From positions 5,909 to 69,908 of the forward strand of contig CAZFNI010000009.1 in the NCBI GenBank assembly GCA_964520655.1: DNA of 64,000 bases, in the 5' to 3' direction. Shown in pieces: positions 41,727-56,150 of this stretch (position 1 is its first letter; the number at the start of each line of letters is the position of its first letter). The translations under genes and the position numbers were made by a program. A model generated the notes under the pieces. It had not been told where the DNA came from. It searched no databases and saw nothing but the letters and a program-made list of their open reading frames with translations. This DNA is from an uncultured Planctomycetales bacterium. Lineage in GTDB: Bacteria; Omnitrophota; Gorgyraeia; Zapsychrales; Fredricksoniimonadaceae.

Positions 41727-44297
41727 TTGATGACCATGAGCATCTTTTATGCTATAACATACCCCATGGAAACTGCCGCAACCCCCATGCTCAAACAATA
41801 TCAGCAGATCAAATCCCGACATCAGGACTGCATCCTTTTTTTTCGTTTAGGGGACTTTTATGAGATGTTCTTTGAAGATGCCAAAGCCGCTTCCTCTATA
41901 TTAGACCTTGTATTGACCTCACGCGGACAGGATGCCGGCGGCAAGATCCCCATGTGCGGCATTCCTTTTCACAGCGCGGACAATTACATCAACAAATTAG
42001 TTAAAGCCGGCAGGAAAGTGGCTATCTGCGAACAGGTTGAGGATCCTGCATCCGCGAAAGGCATTGTCAAACGCGATGTCATCCGCGTGATCACTGCCGG
42101 GACATATCTGGATGATAATACCGACACCCGCTGTTTATTATGCCTGTTGCCTCAAAAGGACGGGAGCTTCGGCTTTGCCTCCTGCGACACCACAAGCTCG
42201 ACCATATTGACCAACCGCATCGCCACTGCGCATCAGGCAGTCGAATTGTTGACGAAGTTAAGCGTTGCCGAATGCATTTATCCCCAAAGCGCTAAAGAAC
42301 ACATGCAAGAGCTCATGGCGCATCCCTTGTTAAAATTAAAGAACATCCTCCTGACAGAATTTGACGATTGGTGCTTTAACGCGGATATGGCCAAAAAATC
42401 CCTGTGCGCCCATTTCGGCGTTCTTAATCTCAACGGATTCGGCATTGAGGATATGCCCTGCGCTCAATCCGCCAGCGGGGCCTTATTAGAATATATGCGC
42501 CAAAGCAGCAAAACAGACTTAAAACATGTAAACAAGATCATGCTCTTTGCCACGGATGATTTTGTATTTATCTCGCCTGCGGCGCATTATGGATTGGAAT
42601 TAGAGACCGTTGTGCGCACCATGGATCTGACCGCAACCCCCATGGGTAAAAGGATGTTCCGTTTTTGGCTGTTTAACCCCCTTAAGGATTTGAATGCGCT
42701 TCAACAACGGCAAAGCGCCGTCTTGGCATTGAACCAGAATCCCAAAAACACCCAAACACTGGAGGAATGCCTGCGGTATTTGCCCGACCTGGAAAAATCC
42801 CTCTCGCGCATCAGCTGCCGCTGCGCATCAGTCAAAGACCTGGTGAGTTTGCGCCAGGGTCTGATGCGTGGTCCGCATATCATAGAAGCATTGGCGCCCA
42901 TGAACCATCCGCTGCTGCAGATAAACGACCTGAAAAATTTACGAGAACTGCTTTTTAAAACGATCGACCCCGACGTGCCTCTTGGCAAACCGGAAGGCAA
43001 GACCATTGCTTCGGGGATCGATGTCGAATTGGATGAATTGCGCTCATTAGCCGAGAACGGTCGGCAATGGCTGCTGGAGTATCAGGCCCAGCAGATCAAA
43101 CGCACGGGGATCAATTCGTTAAAAGTCGGATTCAATAATGTTTTCGGCTACTATATCGAGATCTCCAAAGCCAACCAGAAGTCTGTCCCGGCGGACTATA
43201 TCCGCAAGCAGACCTTAGTCAACGGCGAGCGTTATATCACACCTGAATTAAAAACCTATGAGGACAAGATCCTCACGGCCCAGGACAAGATCTTTGCGAT
43301 CGAGCGCCGGATCCTCAATACCATTGAACAGGAGATCCTGACCCAGGCCGCAGAGGTATCGCGATTCTGCCGCCAGATAGCCTCGATCGACTGCCTGTTG
43401 TCGTTCCAGAAACTCTTATTGTGGGACGGTTATATCCTGCCGGAATTAAATGACAGCGACGCCATTGACATTAAAGACGGACGACACCCCATTGTTGAGA
43501 AAACCGTCCCCAACGGGTTTACGCCCAATGACACCACCCTTAACACCAGCGACTTGCATTTGATCATCCTGACCGGCCCGAACATGGCGGGTAAAAGCAC
43601 CTTTATCCGGCAAAGCGCGTTGTTGGTCATTTTAGCCCAGATAGGCGCGCCTATCCCGGCCAAAGAAGCCGCCATCGGGCTGTGCGACAAAATATTCACC
43701 CGCATCGGCGCGCATGATGAGATCGCCAAAGGCCAGTCGACATTCATGGTTGAGATGACCGAATGCGCGCATATTTTAAATAATCTCACGCCGCGTTCAC
43801 TTGTCATCTTAGACGAGGTGGGGCGCGGGACATCGACCAGCGACGGGCTGTCGCTCGCCTGGGCGCTGGCGGAATACATGCATTCAAAAAAAGTCCGCAC
43901 CCTGTTCGCGACCCATTTCCATGAACTGGTAGGGTTGGCCGACCAGTTTGACGGCATCGCCAATTTCAATGTCGCGGTCAAAGAATGGAAAGACAAGATC
44001 GTATTTTTACATAAGATCATTCCTGGCGGCAGCGACGACAGCTACGGCATTTATGTGGCAAAATTAGCCGGTATCCCGTCAGAGATCATCAAACGTTCGA
44101 AAGAGATCTTATCCGAGATCGAGATCGGTGCGGCCACGCCGTACCATAAGCCACAGCAGCAATTGAATTTGTTCGCGCCGACACACAATCCTCAGATCGA
44201 AGACATTGCCAATGAGTTAAGCAGTCTGGATATCAACACGCTGACACCCTTAGAAGCGTTAAAGATCTTGAACGATCTTAAAAGCAAGCTGGACTAA
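41727..44297 (+). CDS. mutS: DNA mismatch repair protein MutS
   Basis: GPNMAGKST Walker A and the N-terminal TPMLKQYQQIK. The true start may be the ATG at 41766. Confidence 0.9.
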   Translation: MMTMSIFYAITYPMETAATPMLKQYQQIKSRHQDCILFFRLGDFYEMFFEDAKAASSILDLVLTSRGQDAGGKIPMCGIPFHSADNYINKLVKAGRKVAICEQVEDPASAKGIVKRDVIRVITAGTYLDDNTDTRCLLCLLPQKDGSFGFASCDTTSSTILTNRIATAHQAVELLTKLSVAECIYPQSAKEHMQELMAHPLLKLKNILLTEFDDWCFNADMAKKSLCAHFGVLNLNGFGIEDMPCAQSASGALLEYMRQSSKTDLKHVNKIMLFATDDFVFISPAAHYGLELETVVRTMDLTATPMGKRMFRFWLFNPLKDLNALQQRQSAVLALNQNPKNTQTLEECLRYLPDLEKSLSRISCRCASVKDLVSLRQGLMRGPHIIEALAPMNHPLLQINDLKNLRELLFKTIDPDVPLGKPEGKTIASGIDVELDELRSLAENGRQWLLEYQAQQIKRTGINSLKVGFNNVFGYYIEISKANQKSVPADYIRKQTLVNGERYITPELKTYEDKILTAQDKIFAIERRILNTIEQEILTQAAEVSRFCRQIASIDCLLSFQKLLLWDGYILPELNDSDAIDIKDGRHPIVEKTVPNGFTPNDTTLNTSDLHLIILTGPNMAGKSTFIRQSALLVILAQIGAPIPAKEAAIGLCDKIFTRIGAHDEIAKGQSTFMVEMTECAHILNNLTPRSLVILDEVGRGTSTSDGLSLAWALAEYMHSKKVRTLFATHFHELVGLADQFDGIANFNVAVKEWKDKIVFLHKIIPGGSDDSYGIYVAKLAGIPSEIIKRSKEILSEIEIGAATPYHKPQQQLNLFAPTHNPQIEDIANELSSLDINTLTPLEALKILNDLKSKLD

Positions 44298-44303
44298 ACA
44301 CCT

Positions 44304-46064
44304 ATGCCCAAAGTAACTCTTCTTTCCCCTGATGTCATTGCCAAGATCGCCGCCGGCGAGGTCGTTGACCGCCCTTCCTCCGTTGTTAAGGAGCTGGTGG
44401 AGAACTCCATTGACGCGCAGGCGACCTCGATCGAGGTACATCTAAAAGACGCCGGCAAAGAACTCATCCGCGTCAAAGACAATGGCAGCGGTATCACCAA
44501 GGGGGACCTGGGCAATATTTTCCAACGCCACGCCACCAGCAAGATCAACAATATCGATGACTTAGAGACCCTTATCTCCATGGGGTTTAGAGGGGAGGCC
44601 CTGTTCTCGATCGCCGCGGTCTCGGATGTGACAGTGGAAAGCCAGTCGCAAGGCTCCAAAGAATCCTGGCTGCTGCATTTGCGCGCAGGCAAACGGCTGC
44701 AGCTTGAACCATGTGCCGCCAAAGGCCACGGGACCGAAATAAAAGTATCTGAATTATTTTTCAATACCCCGGCACGCCGCAAATTCCTCAAAAGCAGCAC
44801 ATCGGAACTCAACCAATGCGTCCATACGCTGCTCAATTACGGCCTGCTGTATCCGGATAAACGATTTTTATTGACCCACGCCGGCAAAACACTACTTGAT
44901 CTTAGGCCAGCCCCCAACCTTCAAGACCGTATGGCCGCAGCACTGAACTTAAATACCGCAGACCTCCTGGAAACATCCCAGGATTTTCCTGAGGATAAGA
45001 TCTATATCAAAGCCGTCTTAAGCAATATCAACATCGCCCGGCCCCGCCGGGATATGCAGTATTTCTTTATCAATCGCCGGCCAGTTGAGCACAAATCTCT
45101 GGGATTCACCCTCAATGATGTCTACCGCGCGATCCTGCCGCCGGGCGTTTATCCGGCGTTCTTGATCAGCATACAGCTGGATCCGTCTTGTGTTGATGCC
45201 AACATACACCCGGCTAAAAAAGAAGTGCGCATCCTCACTGAAAGCCGCGTAGTCTCTCTGGTAAGGCATTTGGTCGATTACACGCTCATGCGTTTCGGCG
45301 GGACAAAAAAGCTCGAAGCCGCGCCCGGAGCCCCATCAGCAGTGCTGGAGAATATCTCCTTTGAACAGGGACTGCCCGCTGGGCAGATCATCTATGGCCC
45401 GGGACAAAAACAGCCTGACTTTTCTTTTTCTGCATCCCTCTCCCCCAGGCCCGCCATGCCCGCTGCAGCGCCTGATCTATTTGCCGCCCCTGCGGCCTCG
45501 ATGACTGAGAAATTCTCCCGGGCGCGCTACATCGGATCGTTGAATAATAAATTCCTGTTGTTTGAGGATGGTTCTTCTCTATTATGTGTTGACCAGCACG
45601 CAGCCCAGGAACGCATCATGTTCGAACGCTTCACGCGCCAGATCGAAGACGGCGCGATCGAAGTGCAGCCGCTATTGACCCCCATCCTCATCAAATTATC
45701 CATTGTGGAAGCCATCAGCATTGAAGAGTATGGGAAAAAGTTGGGCGAAGTGGGCATTGAGACCGCCCTGCTCGATGAAGGAACGCTGGCCATACACGCC
45801 CATCCTGTGCTGCTCAAGAACATCGAGTCAGCGGTCAGACTGCTGCTCTCAGGAAATGATATCAATCGTTGTGACCGCAACACCATTGCCCGCAGGGCCT
45901 GCAAGGCCTCGATCACTGCCGGCGACCGGTTAAGCCCGCTTCAAGCAGAGCATCAGCGCAGAGAATTGCTCCAATGCAACGACCCGTTCACCTGTCCGCA
46001 CGGCCGGCCGATCATCATTGAGCTAAGCGACAGCTTTCTAGACAGGCAGTTCTTAAGAACATAA
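44304..46064 (+). CDS. mutL: DNA mismatch repair protein MutL
   Basis: GHKL ATPase N-terminus (AAGEVVDRPSSVVKELVENSIDA) and a MutL C-terminal dimerisation domain. Confidence 0.9.
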   Translation: MPKVTLLSPDVIAKIAAGEVVDRPSSVVKELVENSIDAQATSIEVHLKDAGKELIRVKDNGSGITKGDLGNIFQRHATSKINNIDDLETLISMGFRGEALFSIAAVSDVTVESQSQGSKESWLLHLRAGKRLQLEPCAAKGHGTEIKVSELFFNTPARRKFLKSSTSELNQCVHTLLNYGLLYPDKRFLLTHAGKTLLDLRPAPNLQDRMAAALNLNTADLLETSQDFPEDKIYIKAVLSNINIARPRRDMQYFFINRRPVEHKSLGFTLNDVYRAILPPGVYPAFLISIQLDPSCVDANIHPAKKEVRILTESRVVSLVRHLVDYTLMRFGGTKKLEAAPGAPSAVLENISFEQGLPAGQIIYGPGQKQPDFSFSASLSPRPAMPAAAPDLFAAPAASMTEKFSRARYIGSLNNKFLLFEDGSSLLCVDQHAAQERIMFERFTRQIEDGAIEVQPLLTPILIKLSIVEAISIEEYGKKLGEVGIETALLDEGTLAIHAHPVLLKNIESAVRLLLSGNDINRCDRNTIARRACKASITAGDRLSPLQAEHQRRELLQCNDPFTCPHGRPIIIELSDSFLDRQFLRT

Positions 46065-51463: not shown

Positions 51464-51961
51464 CTAACGTTTTCTATTCTTTAAGATCATCCCGGCCAAG
51501 CCCATCCCCATCAAAGACAAAGACATCGGTTCAGGTACAGGGACAGCCGATTCCGTGTCACTGGTTGGGCTTTCGGTTAAAGGTAGTGATCGTGAACCTT
51601 CGTCAATGGGACCGTCACCTGGGATATCTTCAAAAGGGCCATCTTCCCCTGGACCGTCATCTTCGACATGATCCTTGCGGGCTTCTCTCATGAATGGATC
51701 ATCATGATGTGGCTCATCGTCAACTAAACTCGCAGGTTTGAAATCTTCCTCACCGCCATAGCCGGATCCGTCTGGACCGAAGGAATCCCCTTCTTCTGTG
51801 GAATCAGGGACCCAATGCCCAGCCACAAAATGACCTCCGCGGGCATGCTTCTTCTTGAACATCCCCATGGCCCAGGACGGCTGTGAAGTGACAACCATCG
51901 CCAAAACCATTAAAAAAACACTTACTGTGATCTTACGCATTTTGCTCTCCTTGGTGAACAT
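51464..51961 (-). CDS. PEP-CTERM-anchored acidic low-complexity secreted protein
   Basis: Signal peptide and a G/D/E/P/H-rich body. C-terminus is VPEP + MSLSLMGMGLAGMIL + KNRKR, which is the PEP / hydrophobic helix / basic tail layout. Confidence 0.65.
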   Translation of the reverse strand: MFTKESKMRKITVSVFLMVLAMVVTSQPSWAMGMFKKKHARGGHFVAGHWVPDSTEEGDSFGPDGSGYGGEEDFKPASLVDDEPHHDDPFMREARKDHVEDDGPGEDGPFEDIPGDGPIDEGSRSLPLTESPTSDTESAVPVPEPMSLSLMGMGLAGMILKNRKR

Positions 51962-52194: not shown

Positions 52195-52225
52195 AAAAAA
52201 GACCGCGCAAGGCGGTCATTTTTAT
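52195..52225 (-). terminator. rho-independent terminator downstream of the TIR operon
   Basis: Minus-strand RNA GACCGCCUUGCGCGGUC followed by UUUUUUAUUGG. Confidence 0.5.
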
Positions 52226-52227
52226 TG

Positions 52228-52242
52228 GTAGCCCCAACGGGA
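52228..52242. repeat. 15-bp exact direct repeat of the tRNA-Glu 3' end (GTAGCCCCAACGGGA), candidate attL
   Basis: Identical to 56075-56089. That copy covers the 3' 14 nt of the tRNA plus one flanking base. Confidence 0.65.
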
Positions 52243-52305: not shown

Positions 52306-52842
52306 TTAACCTTTACTCTTTACCCAATCACCTAACTTAGGTATCGCCTTAGGCATTAAGGGGTCGTTTACCCATATATAGTGATCAGTTTTATCAATTA
52401 GAGGATATAAGCTTAAGTACTCTGTACCAATAAAAGAACTGTCGCTTGTATCTAATATTGGTAATATGGCGACAAGATTTCTATAGGCATCAAAATAACC
52501 TAATTCCCAAGGCATCCATTTTGACGAGGGACTGTTCTCAGAGGAGCAATAAATCAAGCTTCTTGATTGTCGCATCCGTTTTCTGAGAATTTCAGCCGTT
52601 TGTTTATTGACCTTATTTCTGTCTAAATTAGTTGGTTCTGATAACCAGTCAACATAACATTTTAAACCAAAGGTGGTTTCGATATAGCTTTTTAGTTTAC
52701 GAATATATTTTTTGTCTGCATAGCTATGTGACAAAAAAATATCGAATGTGTCCCTGTCACTAATGATGGGGCGGGATGCATTTTCAAACAAACGTGTCTC
52801 GTTGGTAGATTCTTCCAACATCGCTTTAGTAAAGAATTTCAT
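52306..52842 (-). CDS. TIR-domain protein (canonical bacterial TIR)
   Basis: 178 aa. FDIFLSHSYADKKYIRKL is a betaA-type motif. SRSLIYCSSENSPSSKWMPWELGYF is the S-x-W-x-x-x-EL motif and includes the conserved Glu. Confidence 0.7.
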   Translation of the reverse strand: MKFFTKAMLEESTNETRLFENASRPIISDRDTFDIFLSHSYADKKYIRKLKSYIETTFGLKCYVDWLSEPTNLDRNKVNKQTAEILRKRMRQSRSLIYCSSENSPSSKWMPWELGYFDAYRNLVAILPILDTSDSSFIGTEYLSLYPLIDKTDHYIWVNDPLMPKAIPKLGDWVKSKG

Positions 52843-52849
52843 ATAGCTC

Positions 52850-53734
52850 CTAATTTATACGTTTTGCACACCACATAGTGTGTTCCCTAGATATTGCATT
52901 CTCAGCATTAATAATATAATCAGAGAAATCTTTTTCATCTTTAACATGTTCACCTAGGCTTTCTATGCAAGTCAATTCGTGCTCAGCCATTGAGTATGCT
53001 TGGCTAAGTTCGCTGTGTTTTTTTATCTGAATCCATGCACAAAATATCGCGACTAAAGTTGTTATGGATCCTATAGGATTAAACCAAACTTCGGGAAAGA
53101 AAATTAGCAATACAGCAACAATAATACCAACAATTTCTCCTCCTAAGATTATGAAAAACCATAAATTCTCCTGGTCTTCATTAAGTTTAGATTTACGTTT
53201 ATACCAGTGTTTTTGATCTATGATCCGTTGAGGAACATAGAGTTTTTTTCTTTCTTCAAGTGAAAGAGCTCTAATCTGCTTCATTCTTACTGATATTTGT
53301 TTCTCGCCATTGGAACAAGAAGCCATTACAGCATGCACTTCGGGATGGGATCTAAATATTTCATCTAATTCTTCAATAAATTTTTTGTCAACGTCTACTG
53401 CGGACAAATTTAATTGATATGGGTGGGCTCCCATAATATAGCGCCATGTAGCTGTCTTAACTGATTCTGCAATGGCTCGTGTGTTAAACCAGTTATCATC
53501 CCACTTTCTAATTTTTATACATAGGCGGGATAAAAAGGCAAAAAAGAGCATCACTGCCGTAATTATGGCTAAAGTAGTGCAGGTTGCTACGTTGGTTAAA
53601 ATGAAACCTCCGGAAACCGCTGCACAAAACACAAAAAAGAATTCTGCTTTAGATGCCTTAAGATAACACTCTTGTTGCTGGATTGACACCGCATCACTTT
53701 TTTGAAATAAGGCAGGGTAGTCCGAAGGCTTCAT
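52850..53734 (-). CDS. membrane protein with two 2TM modules, SLATT-like (tandem SLATT_1/SLATT_3-type architecture is inferred)
   Basis: 294 aa. TM pairs at about 28-68 and 185-225, each preceded by a polar helix and followed by W-x-Y / E-H-E-L-type helices (TATWRYIMG). The gaps to the neighbouring genes are 7 and 10 nt. Confidence 0.4.
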   Translation of the reverse strand: MKPSDYPALFQKSDAVSIQQQECYLKASKAEFFFVFCAAVSGGFILTNVATCTTLAIITAVMLFFAFLSRLCIKIRKWDDNWFNTRAIAESVKTATWRYIMGAHPYQLNLSAVDVDKKFIEELDEIFRSHPEVHAVMASCSNGEKQISVRMKQIRALSLEERKKLYVPQRIIDQKHWYKRKSKLNEDQENLWFFIILGGEIVGIIVAVLLIFFPEVWFNPIGSITTLVAIFCAWIQIKKHSELSQAYSMAEHELTCIESLGEHVKDEKDFSDYIINAENAISREHTMWCAKRIN

Positions 53735-53744
53735 TTTATTCTCC

Positions 53745-54218
53745 TTAAACAGTTGCTAATTCACGATAAAAAGCTTCGTTATAAACGTAATTACCCGAAG
53801 CATTCATTTTGTAATTCTGTATTGCATGTGCGAGTATGCGTGGTGAGAATGGAACAAACACTGCTCCAATATTTTTTATGATAGGGGGACAAGTTTCTTC
53901 TATCATTTGTTTAGAGCCGTCTAGGTTAACTCCAATAATTACACATTTTTTTTCAATTGCGACTTCCGCCTCCCAACGTACATACTTATGTTTGCTTTTA
54001 GTATCTTTGCCAATCAACATAACATATTTACTTGCCATATTGATTCTTTCGCGGCACCTACTCTTGATGTATGCCTCATCTTCAGAACGGATTTCATTTT
54101 CCAACTGGCAATCAGCAAAATCAAAATCAATCTTCTCATTCGCTTTCCAAGCCTGCATTAAACGGTAAAAATGAATATCCGTACTGCTGAAACCTACAAA
54201 GGTTCTTGGTAGTCCCAT
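53745..54218 (-). CDS. ThsB-like TIR-like protein (DUF1863 / MTH538 TIR-like family)
   Basis: 157 aa. TFVGFSSTDIHFYRLMQAW at the N-terminus, then SKYVMLIGKDTKSKHKYVRWEAEVAIEKKCVIIGVNLDG. This matches the V-x-L-I-G-x-x-T…W-V-x-W-E-I…I-I-G-V pattern as I remember it. Confidence 0.55.
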   Translation of the reverse strand: MGLPRTFVGFSSTDIHFYRLMQAWKANEKIDFDFADCQLENEIRSEDEAYIKSRCRERINMASKYVMLIGKDTKSKHKYVRWEAEVAIEKKCVIIGVNLDGSKQMIEETCPPIIKNIGAVFVPFSPRILAHAIQNYKMNASGNYVYNEAFYRELATV

Positions 54219-54291: not shown

Positions 54292-54333
54292 AGCCCTACC
54301 TTTCTGTTTGCTTCGAACTTGCAAGGTAGGGCC
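54292..54333. promoter_or_regulatory. hairpin / operator-like element in the TIR-operon upstream region
   Basis: AGCCCTACCTT … AAGGTAGGGC form an inverted repeat. A third forward copy, AGGCCCTACCC, sits at 54371-54381. On the minus-strand RNA the stem is followed by UGUUUUUAUGG. Confidence 0.4.
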
Positions 54334-54438
54334 TTATGATCTATACTTAGGCTTAAGCAAAAAGCGACTAAGGCCCTACCCGGTCTGATTGTCGTTAGCG
54401 GTGTAACGTGGGGCCAACCACTTACACCGCGTTTCTTT

Positions 54439-55365
54439 TTAAGACATCTGGTCCTTCCCTTCAGCATAAGGTGCGAAAATTATTGAACGCTCAAGGTCAG
54501 CCTCAGCAATAGCCGTTTGGGTTGACCTGAATGCCGTAAAAATGTTTTCCTTTGTCTCCGACGAACAGTTGTTCAAAATTATCCGGACGCTCTTCGATTC
54601 TTTGGCAAGCACTAACTTTAACCCCATACCGCCACCATCGGCTTCCCAGGCAAATTTCCCCAACAATTCTCCGCCAGAATTCTTAAACTTTGACTCATCG
54701 ACCAATATAAAGATGTTATCGGCATTCTCAATCATAGCTGATTTAACAGCGCACTCCGACGAATTATAGGCCAATAACCCATTAGAAAGACTCAATGTGC
54801 TCGCCGCCAGAAATGCCATCTTAGCCCTAAAGGAACGAAAGAATTCCGCCGCCTTGCCCACCAAACACCGTTCTTCATATAAATACCGTCCACCGGTTAG
54901 GTGCAATCGTATGTTGGGAGGGCACGTGTAGTCTGACGCCGCTACATTATTAGTGATCACATTCAAATTTATATCGTTGACCATAGGATGCAACGAAATC
55001 TCGCGGAACAGAATCTGCGTCGTTGACCCGGCATCAAGAAAGATGACGGTGGGTTCACCCTGATTTTCTTCAATAAAATATTTCTCGATTACAAAGTTGG
55101 CGATGGCCTTCTTCTTATCGGCATTGTCTTGAAACCTACGATTAACCGCACAGTCTTTTACGCCGACAATTTTTGACCGAACACCACCCCGCACTTTCAA
55201 AACCAATCCTTCTTGGTGAAGGCGATCAATGTCCTGCCATACCAATTTGATCGAGGGGTACTTGAACTTTTCCATCAATTCTTCGGAGGTTGCCATGGCC
55301 CGAGTGGTCAACTCCTGAAGAATCTGGATCTTCCTTGTATTTAGGACTTCTTTGGAAACACGCAT
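54439..55365 (-). CDS. DeoR/GlpR-family transcriptional regulator
   Basis: N-terminal HTH and the C-terminal IFLDAGSTT motif of the DeoR sensor domain. Confidence 0.7.
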   Translation of the reverse strand: MRVSKEVLNTRKIQILQELTTRAMATSEELMEKFKYPSIKLVWQDIDRLHQEGLVLKVRGGVRSKIVGVKDCAVNRRFQDNADKKKAIANFVIEKYFIEENQGEPTVIFLDAGSTTQILFREISLHPMVNDINLNVITNNVAASDYTCPPNIRLHLTGGRYLYEERCLVGKAAEFFRSFRAKMAFLAASTLSLSNGLLAYNSSECAVKSAMIENADNIFILVDESKFKNSGGELLGKFAWEADGGGMGLKLVLAKESKSVRIILNNCSSETKENIFTAFRSTQTAIAEADLERSIIFAPYAEGKDQMS

Positions 55366-55665: not shown

Positions 55666-55962
55666 CTAGATATTTGAATTAACTTTTGGTAATAATCTTT
55701 TCTTTAAAAACGCAAATCCTGATCCCGCCTTAAGATATCGTTCAAAACTTTCAGCCAATACATAGCTTGCAAACGTTATATATGTCTCTACTTTCCACGG
55801 AGCGTAACGCTGACAATACCCTGTTTTTGTACGGTTATGCTCGCCTAAGCGGCGTTGTAGATCTTGGGTCATTCCAATGTATAAACGATTAGGGTCGGTT
55901 TCACTGATAAGAATATAGACGATGTGCATGTGAGTAAACAGGGGAGATTGAATACTTTCCAT
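55666..55962 (-). CDS. GIY-YIG domain protein (small UPF0213-like nuclease family)
   Basis: 98 aa with VYILISETDPNRLYIGMTQDLQRRLGEHN. Confidence 0.7.
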   Translation of the reverse strand: MESIQSPLFTHMHIVYILISETDPNRLYIGMTQDLQRRLGEHNRTKTGYCQRYAPWKVETYITFASYVLAESFERYLKAGSGFAFLKKRLLPKVNSNI

Positions 55963-56075
55963 CGGGGGAAATGGAGCAATGCTTGTATTCTACTTCGCTG
56001 AATACTTACGTGTTCAGCTTCGTAGGAATGTACTCCTGCGAAGCTGACACACGAAAGTGCGTCAGCGTAGCAGAG

Positions 56076-56150
56076 TAGCCCCAACGGGATTTGAACCCGT
56101 GTCTAAAGACTGAGAATCTTTCGTCCTGGACCAGGCTAGACGATGGGGCC
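56076..56150 (-). tRNA. tRNA-Glu(CTC)
   Basis: Hand-folded cloverleaf: acceptor GGCCCCA, D-arm GTCT/GGAC, anticodon stem AAAGA/TCTTT with loop TTCTCAG, T-arm CGGGTTCAAATCCCG. It has a G1:U72 pair, discriminator A, and no encoded CCA. The 5' end is uncertain by ±1. Confidence 0.65.

Follow-up and report, generated by a model that had tools for sequence, protein, structure and literature searches.

We analysed a 64,000-nt stretch of the contig CAZFNI010000009.1 (hereafter, the window), in which an open reading frame (ORF) at 52850-53734 on the minus strand encodes a membrane protein of 294 aa. The ORF starts with ATG, and an AAGGAG Shine-Dalgarno site is located 7 nt 5' of the start codon. Genes for two TIR proteins accompany the ORF on its strand, one of 157 aa upstream across a gap of 10 bp and one of 178 aa downstream across a gap of 7 bp. 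A Shine-Dalgarno site precedes each of the three genes of this operon; that of the downstream gene, TAGGAG, overlaps the stop codon of the central gene and lies 5 nt before the ATG. As described below, the 294-aa protein is probably a ThsH-type effector of type VII Thoeris, an anti-phage system already known, of which this would be a new example; the estimate applies to the explanation as a whole, including the mechanism that we propose. The features of the operon are listed here, and residue numbers refer to the 294-aa protein unless another protein is named.

53745-54218, minus strand: upstream thsB gene encoding the 157-aa TIR protein (Pfam ThsB_TIR, E value 4.7e-16; PADLOC ThsB, E value 9.8e-42).

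52850-53734, minus strand: thsH-like gene encoding the 294-aa putative membrane effector with SLATT_3 and SLATT_1 (ORF, Pfam, NCBIfam, ThsH homology, and AlphaFold2 (AF2) model).

53246-53716, minus strand: SLATT_3 module, residues 7-163 (Pfam, hydropathy, AF2, and conservation).

52871-53239, minus strand: SLATT_1 module, residues 166-288 (Pfam, hydropathy, AF2, and conservation).

52306-52842, minus strand: downstream thsB gene encoding the 178-aa TIR protein (PADLOC ThsB, E value 1.1e-51; Pfam ThsB_TIR and TIR_2).

Pfam assigned residues 7-163 to SLATT_3 with an E value of 1.4e-35 and residues 166-288 to SLATT_1 with an E value of 1e-31, both above the gathering score, and NCBIfam agreed with these assignments. 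Because of these matches, the ORF and the two-hairpin layout of its product are genuine and far beyond chance. A preliminary description, made from the nucleotide sequence, had proposed an effector built of two SLATT modules with two transmembrane (TM) segments each. This proposal was borne out, and the ORF on which it rested proved to be real; the four strings quoted from it, SIQQQECYLKASKAE (residues 17-31), TATWRYIMG (94-102), KHWYKRKSK (175-183), and SELSQAYSMAEHEL (241-254), were all found in the protein.

Hydropathy analysis indicated strongly hydrophobic segments at residues ~31-50 (TM1), ~53-75 (TM2), and ~191-213 (TM3); TM4 (~221-237) was under the hydropathy cut-off and was placed from the helices of the AF2 model. 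The four TM segments constitute two hairpins, each with a polar helix before it and a conserved helix after it. In the SLATT_3 module, the polar helix, TM1, and TM2 are followed by a post-TM helix containing the conserved residues W82, R86, A89, E90, S91, K93, W97, and R98, and then by short helices. The SLATT_1 module is composed of a polar helix (Y166, R170, and W177), TM3, TM4, a post-TM helix, and a C-terminal helix, and its conserved residues are W234, K238, Y247, E253, and L254 in the post-TM helix and E278, S282, E284, H285, and W288 in the C-terminal helix. The AF2 model, calculated with a 78-sequence alignment, was wholly helical with a predicted local distance difference test (pLDDT) score of 94.6 and a predicted template modelling (pTM) score of 0.88. 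Its helices comprised residues 8-42, 49-76, 78-101, 112-128, 131-138, and 149-155 in the N-terminal half, and residues 159-212, 221-238, 240-263, and 267-293 in the C-terminal half. In each half, a long helix with a polar start runs into a TM segment and is followed by a return TM helix and the conserved post-membrane helix.

Lysine and arginine residues were confined to the N-terminus, residues 76-190, the inner end of TM2, and the C-terminus, and none was present in the two short hairpin loops. Because this distribution avoids both loops, the topology is predicted to be N-in and C-in with the conserved helices in the cytoplasm. The two-TM hairpins, the conserved flanking helices, and the matches to the family hidden Markov models place the protein in the SLATT superfamily (Pfam SLATT_1, SLATT_3, and DUF4231). 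A sequence search of the PDB with the 294-aa protein returned nothing below an E value of 0.7, and a Foldseek search against the PDB gave a best E value of 0.28, the matches being generic helical or ABC-transporter proteins. When the fold was searched against BFVD, the best matches were weak and partial, and they were giant-virus proteins annotated as SLATT.

In a word-indexed search, the 294-aa protein had 323 relatives. Nearly all of the 120 relatives listed had ~290-330 aa with both SLATT domains, and one, of 194 aa, was a fragment in which SLATT_1 alone was present. When 1.84 billion cluster representatives were scanned exhaustively with HMMER, 1,972 matched at E <= 1e-3, and 702 of these reached E <= 1e-30; among the 150 matches listed, nearly all were aligned over the full length. 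The family is populous, and its architecture is fixed.

Conservation was counted in the 78-sequence family alignment, in which 19 positions were invariant (P7, W82, R86, A89, E90, S91, K93, W97, R155, Y166, R170, W177, W234, Y247, E278, S282, E284, H285, and W288). Fifty-five of the 63 positions conserved at 80% or more fell outside the four TM segments, and many of them were Arg, Lys, Trp, Tyr, or His. The non-membrane helices (residues 1-30, 76-190, and 238-294) account for 202 of the 294 residues (~69%). The preliminary description stated that the protein has no soluble sensing domain and that activation would come through the TIR partners or a ligand-binding helix. The former statement is misleading in view of the extent and conservation of these helices; the sensor appears to be built into the 294-aa protein itself, which comes nearest to the ligand-binding helix. 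The expectation of TIR-dependent activation is supported: TIR genes flank the ORF, and homologous ThsH is activated by a TIR-made nucleotide in type VII Thoeris.

Two short motifs had also been pointed out earlier, and each was upheld in part. Within W-x-Y, W97 was invariant, whereas Y99 was conserved at 60-80% only. Within EHEL, E253 and L254 were conserved at 90% or more, whereas the H was replaced by Q in 67 of the 78 relatives, the family consensus around this site being ELxQSYxLAAQEL. Near these motifs, R98 was kept in 76 of the 78 aligned sequences and Y247 was invariant. The most conserved motif of the family, E278-x3-S282-R-E284-H285-T-M-W288 in the C-terminal helix, had been overlooked, as had the conserved residues R155, Y166, R170, and W177 of the helix entering TM3.

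In December 2025, Yirmiya et al. described type VII Thoeris, which consists of a ThsB TIR protein and the SLATT effector ThsH (bioRxiv 10.64898/2025.12.03.692087). According to this preprint, members of the ThsH family experimentally confer defence, and three tested SLATT-associated TIRs produced canonical cyclic ADP-ribose (cADPR) upon infection. Exogenous cADPR, not 2'cADPR or 3'cADPR, halted the growth of cells with the two type VII systems so tested. In their AlphaFold 3 (AF3) models, ThsH formed a filament-like homo-hexamer, and the pockets between its protomers were positively charged.

The reference ThsH sequences in our comparison were taken from the genes next to the TIR gene in loci fetched with published TIR domain sequences and are not the tested constructs themselves. 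One was from a Pseudohongiella nitratireducens locus (L034), the TIR domain of which is 100% identical to the tested one, and the other was from a close relative of the tested Alteromonadales scaffold (L001) with a 95% identical TIR. The genes immediately 3' of the TIR gene in L034 and L001 encode 294 and 290 aa, respectively, and both products carry SLATT_3 and SLATT_1. The 294-aa protein of the window was 32% identical to the Pseudohongiella nitratireducens ThsH (E value 2e-51) over 291 of its 294 residues and 33% identical to the Alteromonadales-type ThsH (E value 2e-56) end to end, and it shared 18 and 19 of the 19 invariant family residues with them, respectively. The likeness to ThsH of type VII comprises a length of ~290-294 aa, SLATT_3 plus SLATT_1, four TM helices, an adjoining ThsB TIR gene, and a collinear alignment with the common motifs RAxAESVKTxxWR, YxxxR, WxQxK...Y, and ExxxSREHTxW. 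Because the homology runs from end to end, the SLATT_3 and SLATT_1 architecture is common, and the invariant residues are retained, the 294-aa protein is predicted to be a member of the ThsH family. This prediction agrees with every computationally testable feature, namely the full-length homology to ThsH, the SLATT domains with TM helices, the adjoining ThsB-type TIR, and the glutamate kept in the TIR proteins. Accordingly, thsH is a suitable name for the gene, and its three-gene cluster qualifies as type VII Thoeris of a probable Omnitrophota bacterium in a small tRNA-inserted island. The value of this instance lies mainly in annotation, the gene being overlooked by the PADLOC models of 2023.

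Residue 200 (53135-53137), in the middle of TM3, was polar throughout the 78 aligned relatives, with Q in 51 of them, E in 25, and N in 2; the Pseudohongiella ThsH has H here. This residue is a candidate for lining a lumen or for helix packing. The conservation map thus offers candidate ligand-pocket and gating residues, in the cytoplasmic helices and at this mid-membrane polar position, for ThsH, the structure of which is still unsolved.

The two TIR proteins were compared with all published or tested TIR domains. The best characterised matches of the 157-aa TIR were the type VII TIR of Bacillus sp. PvP124 (42% identity, E value 2e-33) and a type X TIR (42.5%), and its best match to the three cADPR-producing TIRs was at 28% identity (E value 6e-9). 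The 178-aa TIR was most similar to TIRs of type V (49%) and type IX (54%); it had no type VII match better than an E value of 0.005 and no match to the three cADPR-producing TIRs at E <= 0.01. In TIR NADases, the conserved glutamate is catalytic and is needed for the cyclisation of NAD+. Both proteins retain this residue, as E83 of the 157-aa TIR in VRWEAEV, which aligns with VRWEMEV of the type VII TIR, and as E113 of the 178-aa TIR in PWELGYFD, which aligns with PWEVGYFD of the type V TIR.

Subsequently, the gene contexts of the closest homologs were compared. Three loci (L079, L080, and L081) contain ThsH homologs 56-59% identical to the 294-aa protein, each preceded by a TIR gene of the 157-aa type; in L079, the upstream TIR is 74% identical to the 157-aa TIR and the ThsH 59% identical to the 294-aa protein. 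A further ThsH, P0010 (51% identity), has a gene for a 159-aa ThsB_TIR protein directly upstream, which is known without DNA comparison. The pair of an upstream TIR gene and thsH therefore recurs in four homolog contexts, the three loci and P0010, and these homologs lie among restriction-modification, Pycsar, and other defence genes. The slot 3' of thsH varies, being occupied by another TIR type in L079, by nothing in P0010, and by a TPR protein in L080. More widely, TIR loci of the Alteromonadales type had a ThsH profile match (E <= 1e-5) beside the TIR in 21 of 33 cases, and those of the Pseudohongiella type in 14 of 45, counts that include a few weak or partial matches and, in L078, a match on the opposite strand. 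From these comparisons, the operon of the window looks like a conserved core of the 157-aa TIR and ThsH with an added ThsB of another lineage.

Several arrangements in these loci are worth recording in their own right. At 5513-10462 of L079, a two-TIR type VII Thoeris is directly beside a lipase-like gene, a Pycsar pair (nucleotide cyclase and PycTM), and a type I restriction system, and this region is a compact defence island. In L080 and L081 (6986-7831), the gene directly after that of the 56%-identical ThsH encodes a 281-aa TPR-repeat protein. This protein differs from the CMP-hydrolase-TPR effector ThsI in that no hydrolase domain can be recognised in it. ThsH homologs of 47-49% identity in L082 (4001-8299) and in L083 and L084 (4001-8317) are in operons with QueC and two TIRs, and these operons also hold a weakly TGT-like protein of 328-331 aa and an Ogg-HhH protein. 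A Cap9/10/11-type accessory arrangement of this kind has been described (bioRxiv 10.64898/2025.12.03.692087).

It is conceivable, at rather less than even chances, that the 178-aa TIR is not a partner of ThsH but a remnant or passenger of another Thoeris type whose effector was lost, and that the working system is the pair of the 157-aa TIR and ThsH. None of the five closest sampled relatives of the 178-aa TIR (58-68% identity) adjoins ThsH, four of the five are in an operon of a TIR, a 130-aa protein with three predicted TM segments, and another TIR, and the variable occupancy of the slot 3' of thsH fits the same idea. However, the downstream gene follows thsH after 7 bp with its Shine-Dalgarno site overlapping the thsH stop codon, its ORF is intact and retains the conserved glutamate, and multi-ThsB Thoeris operons and islands are on record, such as type III and those of the published Fig. 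6D,E. In the preferred reading, the operon is of type VII, and both TIR proteins may feed ThsH.

The four TIR-x-TIR operons mentioned above are located at 4001-5436 of L085, 4001-5511 of L086, 3799-5187 of L090, and 4001-5410 of L087. Their second TIR resembles type I/III TIRs, and three of the four operons are nested between hsdS and hsdR of a type I restriction system. The 130-aa middle protein had no Pfam match; ThsF (DUF2270) was considered as its identity and was dropped on this result. This small membrane protein is a candidate for a Thoeris effector not yet described or verified.

Several points weigh against a cADPR-responsive type VII system in the window. The identity to ThsH of the validated type is ~32-33% only, and the reference sequences were taken from loci with 100%- and 95%-identical TIRs rather than being the exact tested ones. 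By the PDB sequence search and Foldseek, there is no solved structure with which ThsH could be compared, and PADLOC v2.0.0 (2023) had no match for the 294-aa protein, leaving no independent defence-model call. Neither TIR of the window is in a cluster with demonstrated cADPR production. The type VII TIR nearest to the 157-aa TIR, that of PvP124, belongs to a system that gave no defence when tested, and the signal of type X TIRs, which are also near, is unidentified; the 178-aa TIR is nearest to type V/IX TIRs, and those of verified type V/IX systems make 3'cADPR. The window thus differs from the described type VII systems in that its TIRs are from lineages other than the three cADPR-producing ones and that its thsH is between two dissimilar thsB genes, an uncommon combination of TIR lineages. 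Its probable host is from Omnitrophota, a phylum unmentioned among type VII carriers in the text of the preprint.

These differences raise the question of whether this ThsH clade senses another signal, such as His-ADPR, 3'cADPR, or the type X signal, or integrates the products of two dissimilar ThsBs, which we consider unlikely. The clade is consistently paired with a TIR that matches cluster 2598792572-type TIRs, a cluster to which type II (His-ADPR) and type X TIRs belong as well (bioRxiv 10.64898/2025.12.03.692087). The PvP124 system is the sole tested type VII system of the 157-aa TIR type. As for the 178-aa TIR, 49-54% identical to type V/IX TIRs, the 49% match is from the verified, 3'cADPR-making set, and the 54% match is from a type IX system without defence when tested. 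On the other hand, the invariant polar and aromatic residues outside the membrane are common to ThsH beside cADPR-producing TIRs (18 of 19 and 19 of 19), which argues for the same ligand, and TIR clusters mix effector types, so that a cluster predicts the product poorly. Because the TIR lineages of the window lack demonstrated cADPR production, we infer the signal of this operon from the effector and not from the TIRs, and its identity is uncertain. The pairing of ThsH with such TIR lineages is a natural test case: it can show which of the two, TIR lineage or effector, predicts the signal used in Thoeris.

With cADPR as the preferred signal, the following mechanism can be proposed. Both flanking ThsB TIR proteins would sense phage infection, and, upon infection, a ThsB would convert NAD+ to a cyclic ADP-ribose signal, most likely canonical cADPR by analogy with the validated systems. 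The signal would bind to positively charged, aromatic-rich pockets of ThsH formed by the conserved cytoplasmic helices; in published AF3 models, such pockets are present between protomers (bioRxiv 10.64898/2025.12.03.692087). ThsH would then assemble or change its conformation in a homo-oligomeric, membrane-spanning array of its four TM helices, with consequent loss of membrane integrity, and the cell would stop growing or die before the release of phage progeny. The pore of four helices from a single monomer suggested in the preliminary description is unlikely, because one monomer provides only a four-helix bundle and the published AF3 models are homo-oligomeric and filament-like.

An internal SLATT duplication, which had also been suggested, was undetectable by sequence. 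Profiles of residues 1-164 and 165-294 made from the 78-sequence alignment were compared with hhalign in default, low-mact, and global modes, and the probability was 2% with a score of 18.4. The reversed-sequence controls scored higher (21.8-24.8), and the value for the two halves also fell inside the spread of the column shuffles (12.7 +/- 3.0, at most 24.8). In favour of a duplication, though indirectly, both halves are filed under SLATT families, the helix order in the AF2 model is parallel in the two halves, and DUF4231 matches all N-terminal halves and, weakly, one C-terminal half (E value 1.3e-3).

The 294-aa protein was also compared with other membrane effectors. The SLATT-5 effector of the DRT10/UG17 reverse-transcriptase defence is likewise a two-TM effector of the SLATT superfamily, and it is required for toxicity and defence in DRT10. 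In contrast to the 294-aa protein, it has a single SLATT module of another subfamily, and its partners are a reverse transcriptase and a non-coding RNA (ncRNA), not a TIR; no reverse transcriptase was found near the window gene in the ORF list and with Pfam. ThsF (DUF2270) of type V is another small, all-helical membrane effector, for which an AF3 oligomer with positively charged inter-protomer pockets for a cyclic ADP-ribose isomer has been presented. It has three TM segments and answers to 3'cADPR, and it is the downstream TIR of the window that resembles type V TIRs. ThsF is of an unrelated family, however, and the 294-aa protein has no DUF2270 match in Pfam. The type II effector (TM plus Macro; ThsC in the new nomenclature) is similar as a membrane-anchored Thoeris effector, and type II TIRs fall in one cluster with those SLATT-associated TIRs that are similar to the 157-aa TIR. 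In this effector, the Macro domain senses His-ADPR, whereas the 294-aa protein has no Macro domain according to Pfam.

An effector of type I, II, or III Thoeris was rejected, as no SIR2, SLOG, or Macro match was found with Pfam, NCBIfam, and PADLOC. A CBASS or DRT10 effector was also rejected: the neighbours are the two TIRs, a DeoR-family regulator, and a GIY-YIG protein, with no CD-NTase and no reverse transcriptase with ncRNA. A role outside defence, as a housekeeping membrane protein or as the nucleotide exporter or channel first speculated for SLATT domains, is highly improbable: SLATT proteins were originally predicted by comparative genomics only, and their mode of activation was described as open even in the DRT10 work, but the gene lies between ThsB TIR genes in a low-GC island at a tRNA gene, its homologs are in defence islands, and ThsH family members confer defence.

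The operon region has a GC content of 0.37-0.43 versus ~0.50 elsewhere in the window. An exact 15-bp direct repeat delimits this region; the window contains it twice, and by 100 shuffles none is expected. The features of the region and its edges are as follows.

52228-52242, no strand: left copy of the 15-bp direct repeat, GTAGCCCCAACGGGA, an att-like boundary (two copies in the window).

56075-56150, minus strand: tRNA-Glu(CUC), the 3' end of which (56075-56089) is the right repeat copy (tRNA and repeat search).

52201-52217, minus strand: terminator-like GC hairpin with a T-run 3' of the operon, just outside the left repeat.

54439-55365, minus strand: gene for a 308-aa DeoR-family regulator with a helix-turn-helix, a DeoR C-terminal sugar-phosphate sensor domain, and ~78 extra C-terminal residues.

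55666-55962, minus strand: gene for a 98-aa GIY-YIG protein.

Because the right repeat copy is the tRNA 3' end, the region is a 3.85-kb low-GC island inserted at the 3' end of tRNA-Glu(CUC). The island contains the Thoeris operon, the DeoR-family regulator, and the GIY-YIG protein, and no integrase gene was found in it among the ORFs and with Pfam. The hairpin at 52201-52217 is probably the original terminator of tRNA-Glu, because it falls just outside the island repeat.

The DeoR-like regulator and the GIY-YIG protein were considered as conserved Thoeris partners; neither had a homolog in 90 other Thoeris loci, and they are regarded as island cargo. The surrounding region contains the housekeeping genes mutS and mutL and a gene for a PEP-CTERM protein (41727-46064 and 51464-51961). 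The host is probably an Omnitrophota bacterium, because the named MutL relatives are all from Candidatus Omnitrophica metagenome-assembled genomes (54-61% identity). A strong promoter-like site with 11 of 12 matches and an extended TG was located at 55428-55401. The intergenic DNA that follows the DeoR-like gene and precedes the first TIR gene (54320-54395, minus strand) contains a 12-bp inverted repeat (GGTAGGGCCTTA...TAAGGCCCTACC), a third copy (GGTAGGGC), and then a T-run, which could be a terminator or an attenuator separating the regulator from the Thoeris operon.

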